Part shown: piece after piece, positions 1,828 through 18,118 of the stretch
Layout: each line of letters opens with the position of its first letter
Position numbering within the stretch: position 1 is the stretch's first letter
Origin: a virus
Taxonomy: Duplodnaviria > Heunggongvirae > Uroviricota > Caudoviricetes
Length of the DNA stretch: 20,074 nucleotides
Virus record (IMG/VR): IMGVR_UViG_2663763227_000012
Strand: one strand, 5' to 3'
The notes under the pieces: generated by a model
Seen by the model: the letters and a program-made list of their open reading frames with translations, nothing else
What the model was told of the DNA's origin: nothing
Databases searched by the model: none
Program-made: the position numbers and the translations under genes

Positions 1828-4299
1828 TTAAGAATCAGCCTGACTCGGGATCAGTTTTTGCCAGATAACTGAAACGTATTTTGCCTGGTAACGGGCGTCA
1901 TCAAGTGCATTATGGCGCTCACCTTCGAATGGAATAGCCGTTCTGGCATCGAAGTCTATGGCTTTCCCCAGCTCAACGATTGTGCGTACATCGCGATCGT
2001 TGTAGTAACGCCACGGGCAGGGGATCCCCTGCCGTTCGTATGAACGGCGCAAAATCGTGTTGTCGAAGTTGGCTCCATTTCCCCAAACCTGAACAAAAAA
2101 TTCACCGGAGTTTTCGTCGATAAATTCTCGCAATTGTAACAGTGCATCATCTAACGGGATTTCATCGGTCATAATGGCAGATTGCGCTTCGCGTGATTGC
2201 TTAAGCCACCATTTAATGGTGTCCCGATCAATGACTCCGCCAGCAGTTTCCAGATCGATAGTCTTACTAAATTCCGGTCCCATATCTCCGGTTTGCGGAT
2301 CGAAAAATATTGCACCTATTGAGATGATCGGGGCATCAGGATTTTTTCCCATGGTTTCAAGGTCGATCATTAGATGGTCACACGTCCTGCTGGTGGATGT
2401 GATTTCGTGATGACCGTTCACCTTAATTGGGTGATCTGCCGTCTCGCCAGTTTCATTATCGCTATTGTGATGCTGATTGCCGCCAGTGTTCTCCTTGTGT
2501 GGATGTTCAGCGCCTTCCATTTCCTCCGGATCATCTTCCTGAACTTCAACCTGATACTCTTCATCGAATGTTTCTTGGTATGTTGCGTCGCCCATCACCG
2601 CGCCACAATCAGGGCAGTTGCCGCCGCCGGTCTGACCGCAGGCGGTGCAGACTTTTTCCACTTCCTGTTGCGCTACTGGTTCAGGCTGTTTCGTTTCTGG
2701 CTCGTTTTGTAACGCATTTGGACTGTTTTGTTCCGCTTTTTGGTAGTTCCGTTCCGATTCATGCTGGTTCTGGTTCACAGAATCGCGGGTCTGGAGCCCC
2801 TTAACCCATTTCGGATCATTCGGGTCACTAATCCCTTCAACAAATTCACCACGTGATGCAGCAAGCAACTTATCGGCGTCAGGCTGGCTGATATTGGCTG
2901 CCTGCATAATTTTGTTTACTTCGTCAGCGGTAACTTTTATCGGCTCTGGTTGTTCTGAATCTTCAGCGGTATCTACATTTTGCGGTAAGCCCGTGTATGT
3001 GCCATTTTTTCGGGCAAAATATTCTTCTTTTGTGATTTCAGTGGCGCCAGCAGCCAGTGCCTTATCCAGACCAGAGAGTTTGTTTGCGCGACCGTATTTT
3101 TCTCCGTCCTTATCTGCGAAGAGGAAATAGAACGGCCCCTCACGCTCTACAGATGGTTCAGCTTCCGGCGCGGTTTCATTTTTTGGGATATCAGATACCT
3201 CAGTTTCCACTGCATCAGTTTGTGTTTCTGATGACTGGAGAACATCAACAGTGCCCAGGTCTGTTTCTTCATTCTCAAACACGCCCTTTGTCGTCAGGTA
3301 TTCGCAGATATATTTGTTCAGTGCTACGGGATCTTTGTGAATGTCGATCGGACGCTCACGGACAAGGCCAAAAATAGTTTGGCGGTCGTAGCGAAGGGCA
3401 TCAGGCTGTTTGCGCATTGATGCCGAGATACGCTTCCAGTCTTCGCGGTCGTTGTCGATAACTTCTTTTTTTGCCCAGCGATGGATGCTGCCGTCAATGT
3501 TTCCGGCATCCACATCACTAGGCCAGAGAGCGTAGGCCAGTTCGTCATCCAGTGTTTTCCATGTCTGCTTGTATTCGCGATGAATGGCAGCAATGACCGG
3601 GCTGATTTTTCCTGTTGAATTTTCAGTGTACTGTTGATTGGCTCTGGCGCGGGCGAGATCAACAACAGACGTGTATTTTCCGGTTTCCTTGCGTTCACCT
3701 TCGCGACGTTTTTTCCAGATGCGCATCTCTGCCTGAATTTCGGGCCATTTGGCACCAGGCTTACATTTATGCTTAACCCACCCGATGGCATGCAGCTTAA
3801 GCTCCGGATACATGGCGTTAACTTCTGGCATTTTCATCAACGCTTCAACGATATGTCCGTCGAATGTTGCCATGTCTTCCTGCAACAATTCCTGCGCGCT
3901 AATCACCATATCAACGGTGATGTTTTCACATGTGTCGAACTTAACCATGACAGCGTTCTGTACTTCAGGGGCCAGCTTGTCAAAAGTGACGTTCATCGGA
4001 TCGGATTCAGTCTCAACCGGGACAAAAGAAGCAGACTCCTCATCCCAGCGGTTTTCCTGCATATATTCAGCATCCCATGAATCGAGGGCAGGGCGGGGTA
4101 TGCCAGGTTTATCCTCGCAGACAATAAATTTATAAGCGCAGTCCTGAGCAGCCGGATAATGTTCCAGGAATTGCCAGTGAAATTTTGCTCGAGCACGGCG
4201 TTCGTCGCCAGCTTCAATGGCTGTGGCTACAGCCACAGCGCCTTCTTCCCTTGTTGCCAGTTCGTCAGGAATAGCGGCGCAAATAAAGACTTTACTCAT
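1828..4299 (-). CDS. Large prophage protein with C-terminal DnaQ-like DEDDh 3'-5' exonuclease domain and a CxxC-x7-CxxC zinc ribbon
   Basis: ORF 1828..4335 (track starts at a TTG); I prefer the ATG at 4299 (MSKVFICAAIPDE...), which has a GAGG about 10 nt upstream. Exo I (MIDLETMG), Exo II (VWGNGANFD) and Exo III (HNALDDARY) motifs lie in the last ~185 aa (nt ~1831-2390). Zinc ribbon VCTACGQTGGGNCPDCG at nt ~2599-2655. N-terminus resembles the K-12 Qin ydfE fragment from memory. Confidence 0.75.
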   Translation of the reverse strand: MSKVFICAAIPDELATREEGAVAVATAIEAGDERRARAKFHWQFLEHYPAAQDCAYKFIVCEDKPGIPRPALDSWDAEYMQENRWDEESASFVPVETESDPMNVTFDKLAPEVQNAVMVKFDTCENITVDMVISAQELLQEDMATFDGHIVEALMKMPEVNAMYPELKLHAIGWVKHKCKPGAKWPEIQAEMRIWKKRREGERKETGKYTSVVDLARARANQQYTENSTGKISPVIAAIHREYKQTWKTLDDELAYALWPSDVDAGNIDGSIHRWAKKEVIDNDREDWKRISASMRKQPDALRYDRQTIFGLVRERPIDIHKDPVALNKYICEYLTTKGVFENEETDLGTVDVLQSSETQTDAVETEVSDIPKNETAPEAEPSVEREGPFYFLFADKDGEKYGRANKLSGLDKALAAGATEITKEEYFARKNGTYTGLPQNVDTAEDSEQPEPIKVTADEVNKIMQAANISQPDADKLLAASRGEFVEGISDPNDPKWVKGLQTRDSVNQNQHESERNYQKAEQNSPNALQNEPETKQPEPVAQQEVEKVCTACGQTGGGNCPDCGAVMGDATYQETFDEEYQVEVQEDDPEEMEGAEHPHKENTGGNQHHNSDNETGETADHPIKVNGHHEITSTSRTCDHLMIDLETMGKNPDAPIISIGAIFFDPQTGDMGPEFSKTIDLETAGGVIDRDTIKWWLKQSREAQSAIMTDEIPLDDALLQLREFIDENSGEFFVQVWGNGANFDNTILRRSYERQGIPCPWRYYNDRDVRTIVELGKAIDFDARTAIPFEGERHNALDDARYQAKYVSVIWQKLIPSQADS

Positions 4300-4937: not shown

Positions 4938-4995
4938 AAAAAGGGCGGCAGAGCAGTCACGGAGTAAAACTGATACCGCCAAACGTCACCAGAAA
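4938..4995 (-). ncRNA. dicF: DicF small regulatory RNA (ftsZ-targeting sRNA)
   Basis: Reverse complement of 4938-4995 reads TTTCTGGTGACGTTTGGCGGTATCAGTTTTACTCCGTGACTGCTCTGCCGCCCTTTTT, the DicF sequence with its terminal GC stem and U-tail. Lies between ydfC and dicB as in Qin. Confidence 0.85.
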
Positions 4996-8248: not shown

Positions 8249-8671
8249 GTGGCAAAAGTTTTTACACAAGAAGAGCGGGAAAAAATTAAATGGCAGGTGG
8301 TGGAACTCGTGCGCCAGAGCGGCCGTGAGACGTTACGGCAACTGGAAGCTAAAACAGGTGCGACTAGATATCTGATGAGCGTTCTTGCCAGAGAGCTGGT
8401 AGCCAGTGGCGATGTATACAACTCCGGCTACGGGTTATTCCCCTCTGAACAGGCGCGTAAGGACTGGCAAAACGCCCGCAAAAAACTCTCGAGGGCAAAG
8501 GTGAAGAAACCTGCTGTGGTTGATCCGGACCTTATCTGGTCATCACCTGACGGAGAAATACGTCGCTACGACAGTCGCCTAAACATAATCTGTCGCGAGT
8601 GCCGGAAGAGCGAAGTTATGCAGCGCATACTGGCTTTCTATCAGGGTAATTTTCAGGACGTGGCGCAGTGA
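8249..8671 (+). CDS. Hypothetical prophage protein, possible HTH
   Basis: 140-aa ORF with GTG start at 8249 preceded by GGGGG. Segment ETLRQLEAKTGATRYLMSVLARELV looks HTH-like. Stop overlaps the next gene's GTG start (GTGA at 8668-8671). Confidence 0.5.
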   Translation: MAKVFTQEEREKIKWQVVELVRQSGRETLRQLEAKTGATRYLMSVLARELVASGDVYNSGYGLFPSEQARKDWQNARKKLSRAKVKKPAVVDPDLIWSSPDGEIRRYDSRLNIICRECRKSEVMQRILAFYQGNFQDVAQ

Positions 8672-9024: not shown

Positions 9025-10137
9025 TGGAATGAAACGCAAATACCGGTAAGCCAGATTCTGGCACTGACAGACAGAAAACCTGTTATCTGTCAACGAACAG
9101 GGAAAAAACGATAAAACCCACTGGATTATTTTTATGAAAGAGGCATCCAGTGAGTAGATTCGTAAGGCTACAGATACGTATATCTGAATAATTAAATTCA
9201 GTTCTGTAAATAAAATTTAATCCTTAACCGGATGGATTTCTGCACCCTCAGAACATCAGGAGGCCGCCCGAAAGGGCGGTAGTGAAATGCGAAAGTTCAA
9301 AATTATTATTGAAACGGGAATAGCTGGTGGAGATTTTGAGGATGTATTCGAAGTGGACGATGACGCAACACCTGAGGAAATTCATGACGGAGCATAAGAA
9401 ATTTTCTTTAACTACTGCAATTACTCATACCACGAAATAAAAGACGATGAGGAAGAACAAAGTGGCTGATTTTTGTTCAGCTAAATATAACATCAGTTTT
9501 GAAGAGCGGGATGAACTATTAATGGACTATGGTGAGTTACGCGGTGGAAGTGCTGCTGATGTCGAATCCTAGCGTGATGACTATGAAGCGGGAAAAACTC
9601 CGGTCGAAGCATATTGTGATGAGTGGGGCGATGAATGAGCGAGATTAATTATCAGGAAGGGCATGAAACGGCGGGGCAAGCAAAACCAGTGGCATGGCGA
9701 TATCGCTACGTGAAAAAAGGCGTTACGGACTTTCAGGGGAAGTAGTGGTCTGGTGACTGGAAATATGTACCGAAAAAAGAGGATTGTAACGACAGGCCGA
9801 ACTATCAAATTCAGGCCTTATTCACTGCCTCACCAGTCCCAGTTACATCAGAAGAACTGGTTAAAGCTGTGCACTTTTATGAACAACTAAAACGCGAAAA
9901 TCCACCAACATCCGGCAACTAGATTAATGGATTAACTATGTCGGTTAAACGACCAGCCAACTGAAAAAGCGGAAACCTGATTACAGGTTGCCAGATAAGG
10001 CAATGAGCTACCTGGCGCGGAACGGACTGATAAGTATGGGGAATGTTTTACGATGAACCTTTAGACTAAAGAGTTTGTAACGCTATGTAAGTGATTTTTT
10101 CTGGTTTAGATATTTATATGTCCGGCCAAATTGAGGT
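9025..10137. other. AT-rich decayed accessory segment with several gene-like frames each broken by an in-frame stop
   Basis: 9288-9470 (MRKFKIIIETGIAGGDFEDVFEVDDDATPEEIHDGA-TAA-EIFFNYCNYSYHEIKDDEEEQSG), 9490-9637 (in-frame TAG at 9569-9571) and 9635-9921 (MSEINYQEGHETAGQAKPVAWRYRYVKKGVTDFQGK-TAG-WSGDWKYVPKKEDC...). No ORF over 60 aa on the plus strand. Confidence 0.4.
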
Positions 10138-10356: not shown

Positions 10357-10690
10357 ATACAGCGAACTCCATTGGTTTAGTTGGATATTTACTGTGCTGG
10401 ACAAAAACGGTTTGCGGGGAAATCTTAGTTAAGTAGAATGACTGCGGGTGCTTGAGGCTATCTGCCTCGGGCATGGACACCAACGGCAGATAGAGAAAAG
10501 CCCCAGTTAACATTACGCGTCCTGCAAGACGCTTAACATTAATCTGAGGCCAATTTCATGCTAGACACATGTAGGTTAGCCTCTTACGTGCCGAAAGGCA
10601 CGGAGAAGCAGGCTATTGTTAACACCAAGCTGTAATGTCCCCTTTGAACCATTCTAAAATGTCCCCAGACAATTCTCTGGGGGATTTTTC

Positions 10691-14275: not shown

Positions 14276-14527
14276 ATGATGAACATCGAAGAACTGCGTA
14301 AAATTTTTTGTGAAGATGGCCTCTATGCTGTGTGCGTTGAAAATGGAAATCTTGTTAGTCATTACCGCATTATGTGTTTGCGAAAGAATGGGGCTGCGTT
14401 AATTAATTTTGTGGATGCTCGGGTCACGGACGGATTTATCTTGCGCGAAGGTGAGTTTGTCACTTCATTACAGGCATTGAAAGAGATCGGAATAAAAGCT
14501 GGCTTTTCTGCTTTTTCAGGAGAATAA
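14276..14527 (+). CDS. rem: Rem-like small prophage protein
   Basis: 83-aa ORF (MMNIEELRKIFCEDGLYAVCVENGNLVSHYRIMCLRKNGAALINFVDARVTDGF...), matching Qin Rem in length and position after hokD. Confidence 0.6.
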   Translation: MMNIEELRKIFCEDGLYAVCVENGNLVSHYRIMCLRKNGAALINFVDARVTDGFILREGEFVTSLQALKEIGIKAGFSAFSGE

Positions 14528-14593
14528 ACTCATCTACAATCTTGCGCGGGGCTGAACTCCCGCTGAGTAACACCGTGCCACCGGAGAAAACCG

Positions 14594-14872
14594 ATGGCAC
14601 GCAACGCAAAATATTACAATTCTGATAATTCGCCCGTTCTTGCCTGCACGCACGGGCGGTATTCTCACGCATTCAAGTCTGAATGGTTCCAGCACCCTCC
14701 ATGCACTGCAGAACAGGCCGAATGGCTGATTCATTCTTACCGCAGGCGCGGGTTCGAGGTTAAGAAAGCTCTCAGTCTCGACTATCGGCACTGGATAATC
14801 TCTGTCAGGCTGCCTTATTCCGAACGCCCACCACGTGCGTCCCGCACTTTCCAGCAACGGATCTGGAGGTAA
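14594..14872 (+). CDS. Hypothetical protein (Cys/His-containing)
   Basis: 92-aa ORF with GGAG RBS before ATG 14594. Its stop (14870-14872) lies 1 nt before the GTG start of the DUF968-like gene. Confidence 0.5.
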   Translation: MARNAKYYNSDNSPVLACTHGRYSHAFKSEWFQHPPCTAEQAEWLIHSYRRRGFEVKKALSLDYRHWIISVRLPYSERPPRASRTFQQRIWR

Positions 14873-14873
14873 C

Positions 14874-15875
14874 GTGCGGGTATTACTTAGACCTGTTCTG
14901 GTGCCTGAGCTTGGGCTGGTGGTCCTTAAGCCGGGCCGTGAATCCATACAGATATTTCATAATCCTCGAGTGCTGGTGGAACCGGAACCAAAAAGCATGC
15001 GTAATCTGCCATCCGGAGTCGTTCCTGCCGTTCGCCAGCCGCTGGCGGAAGACAAAACATTGCTGCCGTTTTTTAGTAACGAACGGGTGATTCGTGCTGC
15101 TGGCGGCGTTGGCGCATTGTCCGACTGGCTATTACGTCATGTTACATCCTGCCAGTGGCCTAATGGCGATTACCATCACACTGAAACAGTCATTCACCGT
15201 TATGGTACCGGCGCAATGGTGTTGTGCTGGCACTGCGACAACCAACTGCGTGACCAGACATCGGAATCACTGGAGCTGCTTGCTCAACAAAATCTGACAG
15301 CATGGGTGATTGACGTCATCCGTCACGCAATAAGCGGTACGCAGGAGCGGGAATTATCTTTGGCTGAATTATCCTGGTGGGCGGTCTGCAATCAGGTGGT
15401 GGATGCACTACCTGAGGCTGTATCGCGTCGTTCGCTGGGATTACCAGCGGAAAAAATCTGCTCGGTGTACCGCGAAAGCGACATCGTACCGGGAGAGCAG
15501 ACCGCCACCAGCATATTGAAACAACGCACAAAAAATCTTGCACCGTTGCCTTACGCCCACCAGCAACAAAAATCACCACAGGAAAAGACGGTGGTAAGCA
15601 TCACCGTTGATCCAGAGTCTCCGGAATCTTTCATGAAGCTGCCTAAACGTCGCCGCTGGGTTAAGGAGAAATACACACGTTGGGTTAAGACACAGCCGTG
15701 TGCTTGCTGCGGTATGCCAGCCGACGATCCGCATCATCTGATTGGTCACGGGCAGGGCGGAATGGGAACAAAAGCACATGATCTCTTTGTGTTGCCTTTG
15801 TGCAGAAAGCATCACAACGAGCTGCATACGGATACAGTGGCATTTGAAGATAAGTATGGCTCCCAACTGGACTGA
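14874..15875 (+). CDS. ydfU: DUF968/YdfU-like protein with C-terminal HNH-like Cys/His motif
   Basis: ORF 14835..15875 in the track; I prefer the GTG at 14874 because GGAGG sits 4 nt upstream. C-terminus CACCGMPADDPHHLIGHGQGGMGTKAHDLFVLPLCRKHHNELH is HNH-nuclease-like. Confidence 0.65.
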   Translation: MRVLLRPVLVPELGLVVLKPGRESIQIFHNPRVLVEPEPKSMRNLPSGVVPAVRQPLAEDKTLLPFFSNERVIRAAGGVGALSDWLLRHVTSCQWPNGDYHHTETVIHRYGTGAMVLCWHCDNQLRDQTSESLELLAQQNLTAWVIDVIRHAISGTQERELSLAELSWWAVCNQVVDALPEAVSRRSLGLPAEKICSVYRESDIVPGEQTATSILKQRTKNLAPLPYAHQQQKSPQEKTVVSITVDPESPESFMKLPKRRRWVKEKYTRWVKTQPCACCGMPADDPHHLIGHGQGGMGTKAHDLFVLPLCRKHHNELHTDTVAFEDKYGSQLD

Positions 15876-15935
15876 TATTTCGTTTTATCGATCGCGCGCT
15901 GGCAATTGGCGTACTGGCGTAAGTGGAGAACGAGC

Positions 15936-17322: not shown

Positions 17323-17622
17323 AAAAATTCCTTAATACTTATAACTTGGCGCACTATACACACGTTCCTGAAGAAAGCTATAGTTTTTTGATGGGGTTGA
17401 AGATGGCTGGATGTCTAAAATAAACATTGCTTCATATGTTCAACTATGCGTTAATGATTGCGTCGGTTTGAAGAACAGACGATATACGAAGTAGTTTACT
17501 AAAGCAGTTCTCATTTCAGGTGTTATTCACTTATTCCTTCTTTGAGTCTCTCCAATTAAGTACGAAGTCGTTTCTGTTATGCAAACCATTTATGCCGAAA
17601 GGCTCAAGTTAAGGAATGTAGA

Positions 17623-17838
17623 ATGTCAAATAAAATGACTGGTTTAGTAAAATGGTTTAACGCTGATAAAGGTTTCGGCTTTATTTCTCCTGTTGATGGT
17701 AGTAAAGATGTGTTTGTGCATTTTTCTGCGATTCAGAATGATAATTATCGAACCTTATTTGAAGGTCAAAAGGTTACCTTCTCTATAGAGAGTGGTGCTA
17801 AAGGTCCTGCAGCAGCAAATGTCATCATTACTGATTAA
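17623..17838 (+). CDS. cspB: Cold-shock protein CspB
   Basis: 71-aa ORF ([71 protein letters not shown]) with RNP1/RNP2 motifs and a ~300-nt AT-rich upstream region typical of csp genes. Confidence 0.9.
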
Positions 17839-18118
17839 AATTCATCGCTCGTCTGTATACGATAACGAAGAAGGCTGATGCCTGAGTAGAGATACGGACA
17901 GAGTAGTGAATATTGGATCTCTTTAATAAAAAGTAAGGAGGTCCAATACATGAAACAATGGCTAGCATATTTGGCAAAATCTTAATCAGGAAAAGTATGC
18001 TAACCATTGTGGTGAAGTGCAGGTTTGCTGCATGAATAGTTTTACAGCAGAAGCTAACTGCTGGCATGGCAAAACAAAGTGCGTAAGTGGATGACTCCCA
18101 CAAAAAGCACCACAATCT

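Follow-up and report, generated by a model that had tools for sequence, protein, structure and literature searches.

A PHROG 1212 gene and the HNH nuclease gene ydfU as a probably coupled pair in the Qin prophage of Escherichia coli

The Qin cryptic prophage of Escherichia coli includes a small gene for a 92-amino-acid (aa) protein and, immediately downstream, ydfU, a gene of the DUF968 family. Both were studied in IMG/VR virus record IMGVR_UViG_2663763227_000012 (Caudoviricetes), a stretch of 20,074 nucleotides (nt) that is referred to below as the window. It is highly probable that both are genes, that ydfU begins at the GTG codon at 14874, and that the C-terminal part of YdfU has an HNH fold, all three taken jointly. 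The small protein belongs to the PHROG 1212 family, the genes of which, as a rule, lie immediately 5' of a nin-region nuclease gene of one of several families. Coordinates of the features are collected in Table 1.

The 1.8 kb around the two genes are 99.9% identical to E. coli chromosomes, in which flxA, ydfV, relB, relE, hokD, rem, a gene for a hypothetical protein, ydfU, ydfT (antiterminator Q), cspF and cspB follow one another. The stretch is the Qin prophage, and the pair is located in the nin region of this lambdoid prophage, directly upstream of Q. The order at the site, relBE-hokD-rem, the 92-aa open reading frame (ORF), ydfU and Q, agrees with a preliminary description of this DNA that had placed the pair between the toxin genes and Q. 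E. coli K-12 MG1655 has an identical arrangement with an identical 92-aa product (WP_012304870.1), and RefSeq annotates both genes in this strain and in strain E2865.

The ratio of nonsynonymous to synonymous substitution rates (dN/dS) was determined for 43 distinct alleles of the small ORF from 80 viral contigs and the window. It was 0.20 overall, 0.10 for residues 27–92, and 0.74 for residues 1–26. Four of the other five frames gave values of 1.27–1.61. The remaining one, an antisense frame sharing wobble positions with the sense frame, gave 0.30, as expected; the 137-aa antisense ORF that spans the small gene was therefore rejected as coding, its low ratio stemming from the shared positions. 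The values of 0.10–0.20 in its own frame, together with conservation of the family across genera, indicate that the 92-aa ORF is a real gene.

The 92-aa protein is a long form of PHROG 1212, a family of basic α/β proteins of ~66 residues that carries the function label "unknown". Residues 27–92 match profile positions 1–66 of 66 (E 1.7e-35), and a profile search revealed 546 relatives at E ≤ 0.001. Homologues with 30–48% identity were found by tblastn in phages of Salmonella (Gifsy-2), Klebsiella, Yersinia (PY54), Edwardsiella, Hafnia, Erwinia, Cronobacter, and Pantoea. The additional 26 residues at the N-terminus are variable, include in-frame insertions and deletions, and are missing from the homologues of 66–69 aa. 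Residue M1 is invariant, and the sequence has no in-frame start codon nearer the core. Even with E values of up to 1 allowed, the small protein matched no Pfam family. NCBIfam, which includes toxin-antitoxin families, returned nothing for the small ORF or ydfU, and rem, the small ORF and ydfU were all without a match in the PADLOC defence library.

An AlphaFold model of the small protein, calculated from 67 sequences, has a confident core, with a predicted local distance difference test score (pLDDT) of about 86, and a pLDDT of about 44 for residues 1–22. The predicted core comprises a strand (27–33), a helix (39–52), two strands (55–60 and 67–74), a loop, and a short helix (84–90). The family is basic, with a median isoelectric point (pI) of 9.1–9.4, and the core of the copy in the window has a net charge of +7. 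The ORF had been labelled a Cys/His protein in the preliminary description, and it indeed has 2 Cys and 5 His residues. This label is not upheld. Close relatives differ at C18, H20, H25, H47 and H66, and conservation among them reaches 90% or more at H34 and C37 only. These two are in turn replaced in the phage homologues of GF-2, Pocitis76, PY54 and PA-1 (H34 by Q, C37 by M or V). The four conserved ligands required of a zinc-binding Cys/His protein are thus absent, and this assignment was rejected. Profile-profile comparison by hhalign of the small family with the YdfU, NinG, YbcO and DUF1367 domains gave probabilities of 1.5% or less, and fusion-type homology to any of these domains was likewise rejected.

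RefSeq starts ydfU at GTG 14874 in both E2865 and K-12 MG1655, and YdfU homologues down to 26% identity share an M-R/K-x-L-L N-terminus beginning at this codon. GTG 14874 is therefore the true start, as had been proposed, and not GTG 14835. An ORF that begins at GTG 14835 nevertheless exists. It overlaps the small ORF by 38 nt and corresponds to an older annotation (P76162, cited in a P1 record as 362 aa). It could be taken to mean that the 92-aa ORF is no gene, being either a chance ORF or a part of a longer, 362-aa ydfU. Such a reading is contradicted by the dN/dS values in the frame of the small ORF, by conservation of the small family across genera, by the conserved M-R-x-L-L at the N-terminus of YdfU, and by the presence of both genes in RefSeq, and it has hardly any probability.

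The geometry described earlier for the junction was confirmed in the sequence. A GGAGG motif (14865–14869) within codons W91–R92 is located 4 nt before the GTG (14874–14876), and the TAA stop of the small gene is separated from the GTG by a single C at 14873. The sequence TGGAGGTAA-C-GTGCGG is identical in 78 of 79 loci, and the remaining locus shows one change (AGGAGG). Positions 14861–14888 are nearly invariant, wobble positions included, whereas wobble positions elsewhere vary. The short forms of the family have an equivalent junction, ...TGGGGGTGA-nn-ATG, in which the stop codon is followed by two bases and the ATG, and a G-rich ribosome-binding site lies within the last codons. This is the geometry of translational coupling, and the proposal that the two genes are a coupled pair is probably correct, as judged from the constancy of the junction. 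An RNA hairpin hiding the ydfU start was considered and rejected: the structure predicted over the ribosome-binding site and start of ydfU is no better than that of shuffled sequence (z −0.52), and its 5' arm varies without compensating changes.

The C-terminus of YdfU is predicted to be a zinc-containing HNH (His-Me-finger) nuclease domain. The CxxC...HH...C...HH motif on which the HNH-like assignment had been based is present, and profile searches bore it out. Pfam DUF968 (PF06147) matches residues 160–332 at profile positions 1–157 of 171 with 236 bits against a cutoff of 27.8, and PHROG 96, "HNH endonuclease", matches with E 3.7e-162. Sub-threshold Pfam matches were to HNHc_6 and RecA_dep_nuc (PF16786; 19.3 bits, cutoff 26.9). 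For YdfU, an AlphaFold model based on 38 diverse sequences (mean pLDDT 84.6) consists of an N-terminal domain of ~200 residues, a disordered linker (226–243), and a C-terminal finger with the strand-strand-helix metal-finger fold. The D-P-H287-H288 segment is present, H288 is nearly invariant, and H315/H316 and H320 are conserved on the helix. By structure, the finger is nearest to phage P1 Ref; by sequence profile, it is nearest to YbcO, hhalign of the C-terminal domain with YbcO-type proteins giving 90% probability (E 1.7e-6). The HNH assignment is right but was already published in 2017: DUF968 and DUF1364/YbcO were there classed as group 7 of the His-Me finger superfamily, with YdfU named and a role in recombination suggested (Jablonska et al. 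2017, PMC5714182). A literature search found no biochemical data for any DUF968 protein.

In six YdfU homologues of the alignment, the zinc cysteines C279 and C312 are missing together but the HH pair is kept. Three distant homologues are without the catalytic HH pair, which suggests that these three are inactive or repurposed copies.

In the N-terminal domain of YdfU (pLDDT 82–94), C93 and C118 are invariant, and a CWH(H/C)DN motif is conserved. The only Pfam match in this domain was the edge of DUF968 (residues 160–200). Homologues of the domain occur in 175 phage records, including those of Vibrio phages and of phage P1, where PdcB shows 30% identity. Two candidate relationships were rejected on the basis of hhalign probabilities, namely a NinB/DUF1367-like domain (0.7%) and a degenerate second HNH formed by a strand-strand-helix at 105–125 with LCWHCDN (0.5–0.7%).

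The copy of ydfU in the window is shortened by a one-nucleotide deletion to 333 aa instead of 349. The frameshift removes the last 16–17 residues, a helix (ELIFRFIDRALAIGVLA) that is conserved across the family. Every one of the 1737 complete E. coli genomes with a match at the site has the missing base, and the deletion was found only in the window. The cause is a sequencing error or else a mutation private to this copy that inactivates the gene.

Linkage of the two genes was assessed in 80 viral loci with the long form, of which 78 reach far enough to judge the downstream gene. In all 78, a YdfU homologue with 70–100% identity starts one base after the stop codon of the small gene. The flanks are less constant: rem homologues precede the pair in 64 of the 78 loci, and among 69 loci the Q gene downstream of the pair is of the Qin type (at least 90% identity) in 23, diverged in 19, and lacking in 27. 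In O157:H7, genes for RusA and a DUF1133 protein follow ydfU. The long form was found in 20 phage records, and a Qin-type N-terminal domain of YdfU (at least 80% identity) also in 20; the two lists were cross-checked in part, and the inspected parts overlap. In a set of 5426 complete E. coli genomes, the small gene was counted at 8527 places in 4529 genomes and the 5' half of ydfU at 9092 places in 4544 genomes, a ratio of roughly 1:1; each of the two is found in about 83% of the genomes, with up to 8–9 copies. Thus, the small gene and ydfU form a unit within the Qin-type clade. Co-occurrence of the two ORFs across prophages, to which the preliminary description had pointed, held with full synteny in this clade; outside the clade the small gene mostly precedes other nuclease genes.

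The short form (66–69 aa) was located in 38 species-representative enterobacterial genomes, which together with two phages gave 40 loci. Directly downstream of it are genes for NinG in 24 loci, YbcO in 12, RusA in one, and a DEDD-type exonuclease in one. In a further 80 viral loci of the Klebsiella type, the downstream gene encodes YbcO in 70 and NinG in four. In Klebsiella phage ST846-OXA48phi9.1 a short form is directly 5' of a YdfU-type gene, and in Citrobacter phage Chris1 the order is small gene, RusA, YdfU. Upstream of the short form, a DUF1367 gene for a protein of ~200 aa is directly adjacent in 36 of the 38 genomes, typically with a 4-nt overlap, and in 66 of the 80 viral loci. DUF1367, the small gene, and NinG or YbcO thus make up a recurrent three-gene block. 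Two Kluyvera copies of the short form (at about locus positions 2998–3216) look damaged, one by a frameshift and the other by a TGG to TAG change three codons from the end. The small gene is therefore sometimes lost while its neighbours persist.

Partner specificity of the small protein was not evident. NinG or YbcO occur interchangeably downstream of small proteins that are 80–88% identical, in different genomes. The mean identity of small proteins is 0.53 within a nuclease class versus 0.50 between classes. Nearest-neighbour small proteins share the nuclease class in 26 of 36 cases versus 19.6 expected by chance, a weak signal that could be explained by linkage alone. Between loci of the Qin-type clade, the identity of the small gene does not follow that of ydfU (98.9% versus 92.8% in one comparison, 92.4% versus 98.8% in another).

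These data bear directly on the earlier suggestion that the small protein is a cognate inhibitor, of an immunity or antitoxin kind, or a specificity subunit of YdfU that is made first by coupling so that the nuclease is never free. The small gene does come first and is tightly coupled to a potentially toxic nuclease gene, co-occurrence is strict in the Qin-type clade, and an inhibitor aimed at the His-Me finger core, which is all that the three usual partner families share, is conceivable. However, the same family precedes three nuclease families, and neither the partner-specific co-variation nor the obligatory co-occurrence of an inhibitor pair was found. A dedicated inhibitor or specificity subunit is unlikely because there is no co-specialisation, as seen from the NinG/YbcO swaps and the uncoupled identities, because many homologous nucleases occur without the small gene, and because the protein is basic (pI about 9–10.6). 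Colicin DNase immunity proteins, in contrast, are acidic. The lack of a match in PADLOC, NCBIfam or Pfam is a further point against this suggestion, which we regard as improbable.

Association with the upstream gene offers another explanation, in which the small protein is a partner of DUF1367, a putative NinB/Orf-like recombination mediator, and in Qin is a leftover of a DUF1367 module. It draws on the close adjacency of DUF1367 to the short form and on the relation of DUF1367 to NinB/Orf that phage annotators obtained by HHpred; literature searches on DUF1367 and on PdcB gave nothing relevant. The long form conflicts with it, since at its 78 viral loci and 8527 E. coli places the upstream gene is rem or another gene, never DUF1367 where the annotation was read, and the gene is still under purifying selection. 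GF-2, Chris1, Klebsiella phi9.1, PY54 and PhiR46_1 are also without an upstream DUF1367 gene, and YdfU has no similarity to DUF1367. This leaves the DUF1367 partnership only a slight chance, a little below that of an inhibitor.

The explanation that we prefer overall, and to which we give about an even chance, combines two real and coupled genes, an HNH nuclease YdfU, and a generic accessory role of the small protein. Ribosomes finishing the small gene would re-initiate on ydfU, and both proteins would be made together from one nin-region transcript. YdfU would then be a DNA-cutting enzyme associated with recombination or replication, comparable to its nin neighbours Rap/NinG and RusA. The small protein would be an accessory factor of the nuclease module, probably binding nucleic acid, and not tailored to YdfU, because its family precedes NinG, YbcO and DUF968 nucleases alike. 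By analogy with NinH, a Fis-like DNA-bending protein that adjoins rap in lambda (PMC7166090), it possibly binds DNA. The accessory role taken by itself is a tentative assignment, somewhat short of even.

Several observations weigh against this explanation. The nin region is densely packed, with adjacent genes usually overlapping or abutting, and therefore the stop-start geometry alone is no proof of functional pairing. The short forms are tied equally tightly to the upstream DUF1367 gene (36 of 38). RusA and the DEDD exonuclease share no fold with HNH proteins, which argues against one common protein-protein interface. In Erwinia phage Eho59 a cytosine methyltransferase gene is next to the small gene, in Hafnia phage Pocitis76 and Pantoea phage PA-1 extra small ORFs separate it from NinG, and in PY54 the gene that follows it matches no family. 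Conversely, the YdfU-type genes of SfV, Stx2 phages, YeP3, AH07 and Vibrio phages, and pdcB of P1, are without the small gene, as are most diverged YdfU-type nuclease genes. Upstream of the YdfU-type gene there is instead a KilA-N protein gene in SfV (confirmed by Pfam), Stx2a_WGPS2 (annotated as KilA) and YeP3 (inferred from size and position), an anti-repressor gene in Eeyore, rusA in AH07 and P7641, and a deoxyribosyltransferase-like gene in Vibrio phage Cla; in P1, the unrelated PdcA comes before PdcB. In lambda, NinF is upstream of Rap, and in DLP12, NinE is upstream of YbcO.

The main rival is linkage by gene order only, in which the small protein acts independently of the nuclease, for instance on the host or as an unrelated nin accessory, and nuclease genes adjoin it through a conserved order of compact genes. 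The exchange of partners among closely similar small proteins, the variety of downstream genes, the DUF1367 tie, the many YdfU-type nucleases without a small gene, and the lack of profile similarity between the small family and the nuclease or DUF1367 domains all fit this rival. What it does not readily account for is that, of ~200 loci drawn from several genera and involving three nuclease families, more than 90% have the small gene directly 5' of a nuclease gene, whereas the other neighbours differ. Likewise, the Qin-type pair is kept although both flanks vary, and the junction is more constrained than the surrounding wobble positions. Linkage by gene order is as tentative as the accessory role and carries nearly the same weight.

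A more specific form of the accessory role may be envisaged, in which the PHROG 1212 protein is a portable subunit that binds the finger core of the NinG, YbcO and DUF968 enzymes or the adjacent DNA, is supplied in a fixed ratio via coupling, and gates or targets the nuclease in phage recombination. This proposal is speculative and rather doubtful. If it is true, the nin nuclease module of lambdoid phages has a two-component form that had gone unrecognised and that about 83% of complete E. coli genomes would carry. Should the small protein turn out to be a shared nuclease cofactor, the recombination toolkit of lambda (Orf/Rap/RusA) would gain a component, with possible relevance to recombineering; otherwise, the small gene is one more conserved gene of the nin region.

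In practical terms, the start of ydfU is settled, the HNH assignment is confirmed though not new, and the Cys/His label was wrong. The two are ordinary prophage genes that had been annotated before, the modestly new element being the association of PHROG 1212 with several nuclease families. Both genes are among the commonest E. coli prophage genes and are present in K-12, and the PHROG 1212 family is a reliable marker for the 5' flank of nin-region nuclease genes, whichever of several families these belong to.

Table 1. Features of the small gene-ydfU region and other elements annotated in the window.
Feature	Position	Strand	Remarks
DicF small RNA	4943–4994	-	Rfam, above gathering score, 77 bits
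sok antitoxin RNA	10446–10617	+	Rfam, above gathering score, 104 bits
rem	14276–14527		83 aa; PHROG 340, function label "unknown"; 66-nt gap to the 92-aa ORF
Antisense ORF spanning the small gene	14534–14947	-	137 aa; ORF list
Shine-Dalgarno-like GGAG	14583–14586	+	7 nt before the ATG of the 92-aa ORF; read from sequence
Gene for 92-aa protein	14594–14872	+	ATG start, TAA stop at 14870–14872; ORF list; RefSeq hypothetical protein WP_012304870.1
N-terminal 26-codon extension	14594–14671	+	Escherichia long form only; predicted disordered, weakly constrained
Conserved 66-residue core	14672–14869	+	Strand-helix-strand-strand, then conserved basic tail (PRPSRTFQQRIWR)
Coupling junction	14865–14876	+	GGAGG (codons W91–R92), TAA stop, one C, GTG start of ydfU
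ydfU (DUF968)	14874–15875	+	333 aa here; intact gene would end at 15922; Pfam, PHROG 96, RefSeq (349 aa)
YdfU N-terminal domain	14874–15473	+	About residues 1–200; alignment, AlphaFold
Predicted HNH/His-Me-finger core	15699–15833	+	C276-x2-C279, H287-H288, H302-D303, C312, H315-H316, H320
One-nucleotide deletion	15871–15872	+	One G missing between these bases; creates TGA stop at 15873–15875
cspA-type thermoregulator leader	17462–17854	+	In front of cspB; Rfam, above gathering score, 159 bits

As regards the neighbouring elements, the small gene is labelled "toxin to Rem" in some phage records, with no evident basis. Rem itself matched only SocB_toxin in NCBIfam, below threshold (E 0.0099; 14.9 bits versus a cutoff of 210). 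The sok RNA is ~3.3 kb upstream of the annotated hokD and hence does not adjoin it.

Among known systems, YdfU belongs with the group 7 DUF968/YbcO proteins (PMC5714182; YbcO, PDB 3g27). The gene in the window is ydfU itself, and the CxxC...HH...C...H zinc/catalytic pattern is the same. YbcO differs in having about 96 aa with little beyond the finger, whereas YdfU adds the N-terminal domain of ~200 residues and the disordered linker; the copy in the window differs from the group in the loss of the conserved C-terminal helix. The resemblance of YdfU to phage P1 Ref, a RecA-dependent HNH nuclease (PDB 3plw, PF16786), is structural only. Membership of the Ref family was rejected, the PF16786 score being below the cutoff, and Ref is without an equivalent of the N-terminal domain of YdfU.

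Lambda Rap/NinG and RusA, which are junction-specific nucleases, occupy the same niche as YdfU, immediately before Q. NinG, too, has a His-Me finger and is the commonest downstream neighbour of the short form, but its profile similarity to YdfU is marginal (hhalign 11%). A YdfU-type gene and RusA are often found together in a phage, and therefore YdfU is not simply a substitute for RusA or Rap. In P1, the pdcA-pdcB pair includes a full-length YdfU homologue, PdcB, and the layout of a 66-aa ORF, pdcB (2405–3448 in the P1 stretch examined) and the late-gene activator Lpa mirrors that of the small gene, ydfU and Q. PdcA was rejected as a homologue of the small protein, as it has no match to the small-family profile, and the likeness is in layout only.

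NinE, NinF and NinH of lambda and DLP12 resemble the small protein in size class and in position beside a nin nuclease gene. Identity with these proteins was rejected, as no Pfam family was found at E ≤ 1 and the predicted fold is α/β and not helix-turn-helix; Eho59 and PA-1 have NinF as a separate gene in addition to the small gene. The closest counterparts of the small protein are other members of PHROG 1212, namely Orf QD1 of phage N15, which is its top BFVD structural match (31% identity), and STM1021.1n of Gifsy-2, which is 38% identical to it. The Escherichia long form differs from these members in its extra 26-residue disordered N-terminus, and it is the form that is linked to YdfU-type nucleases.

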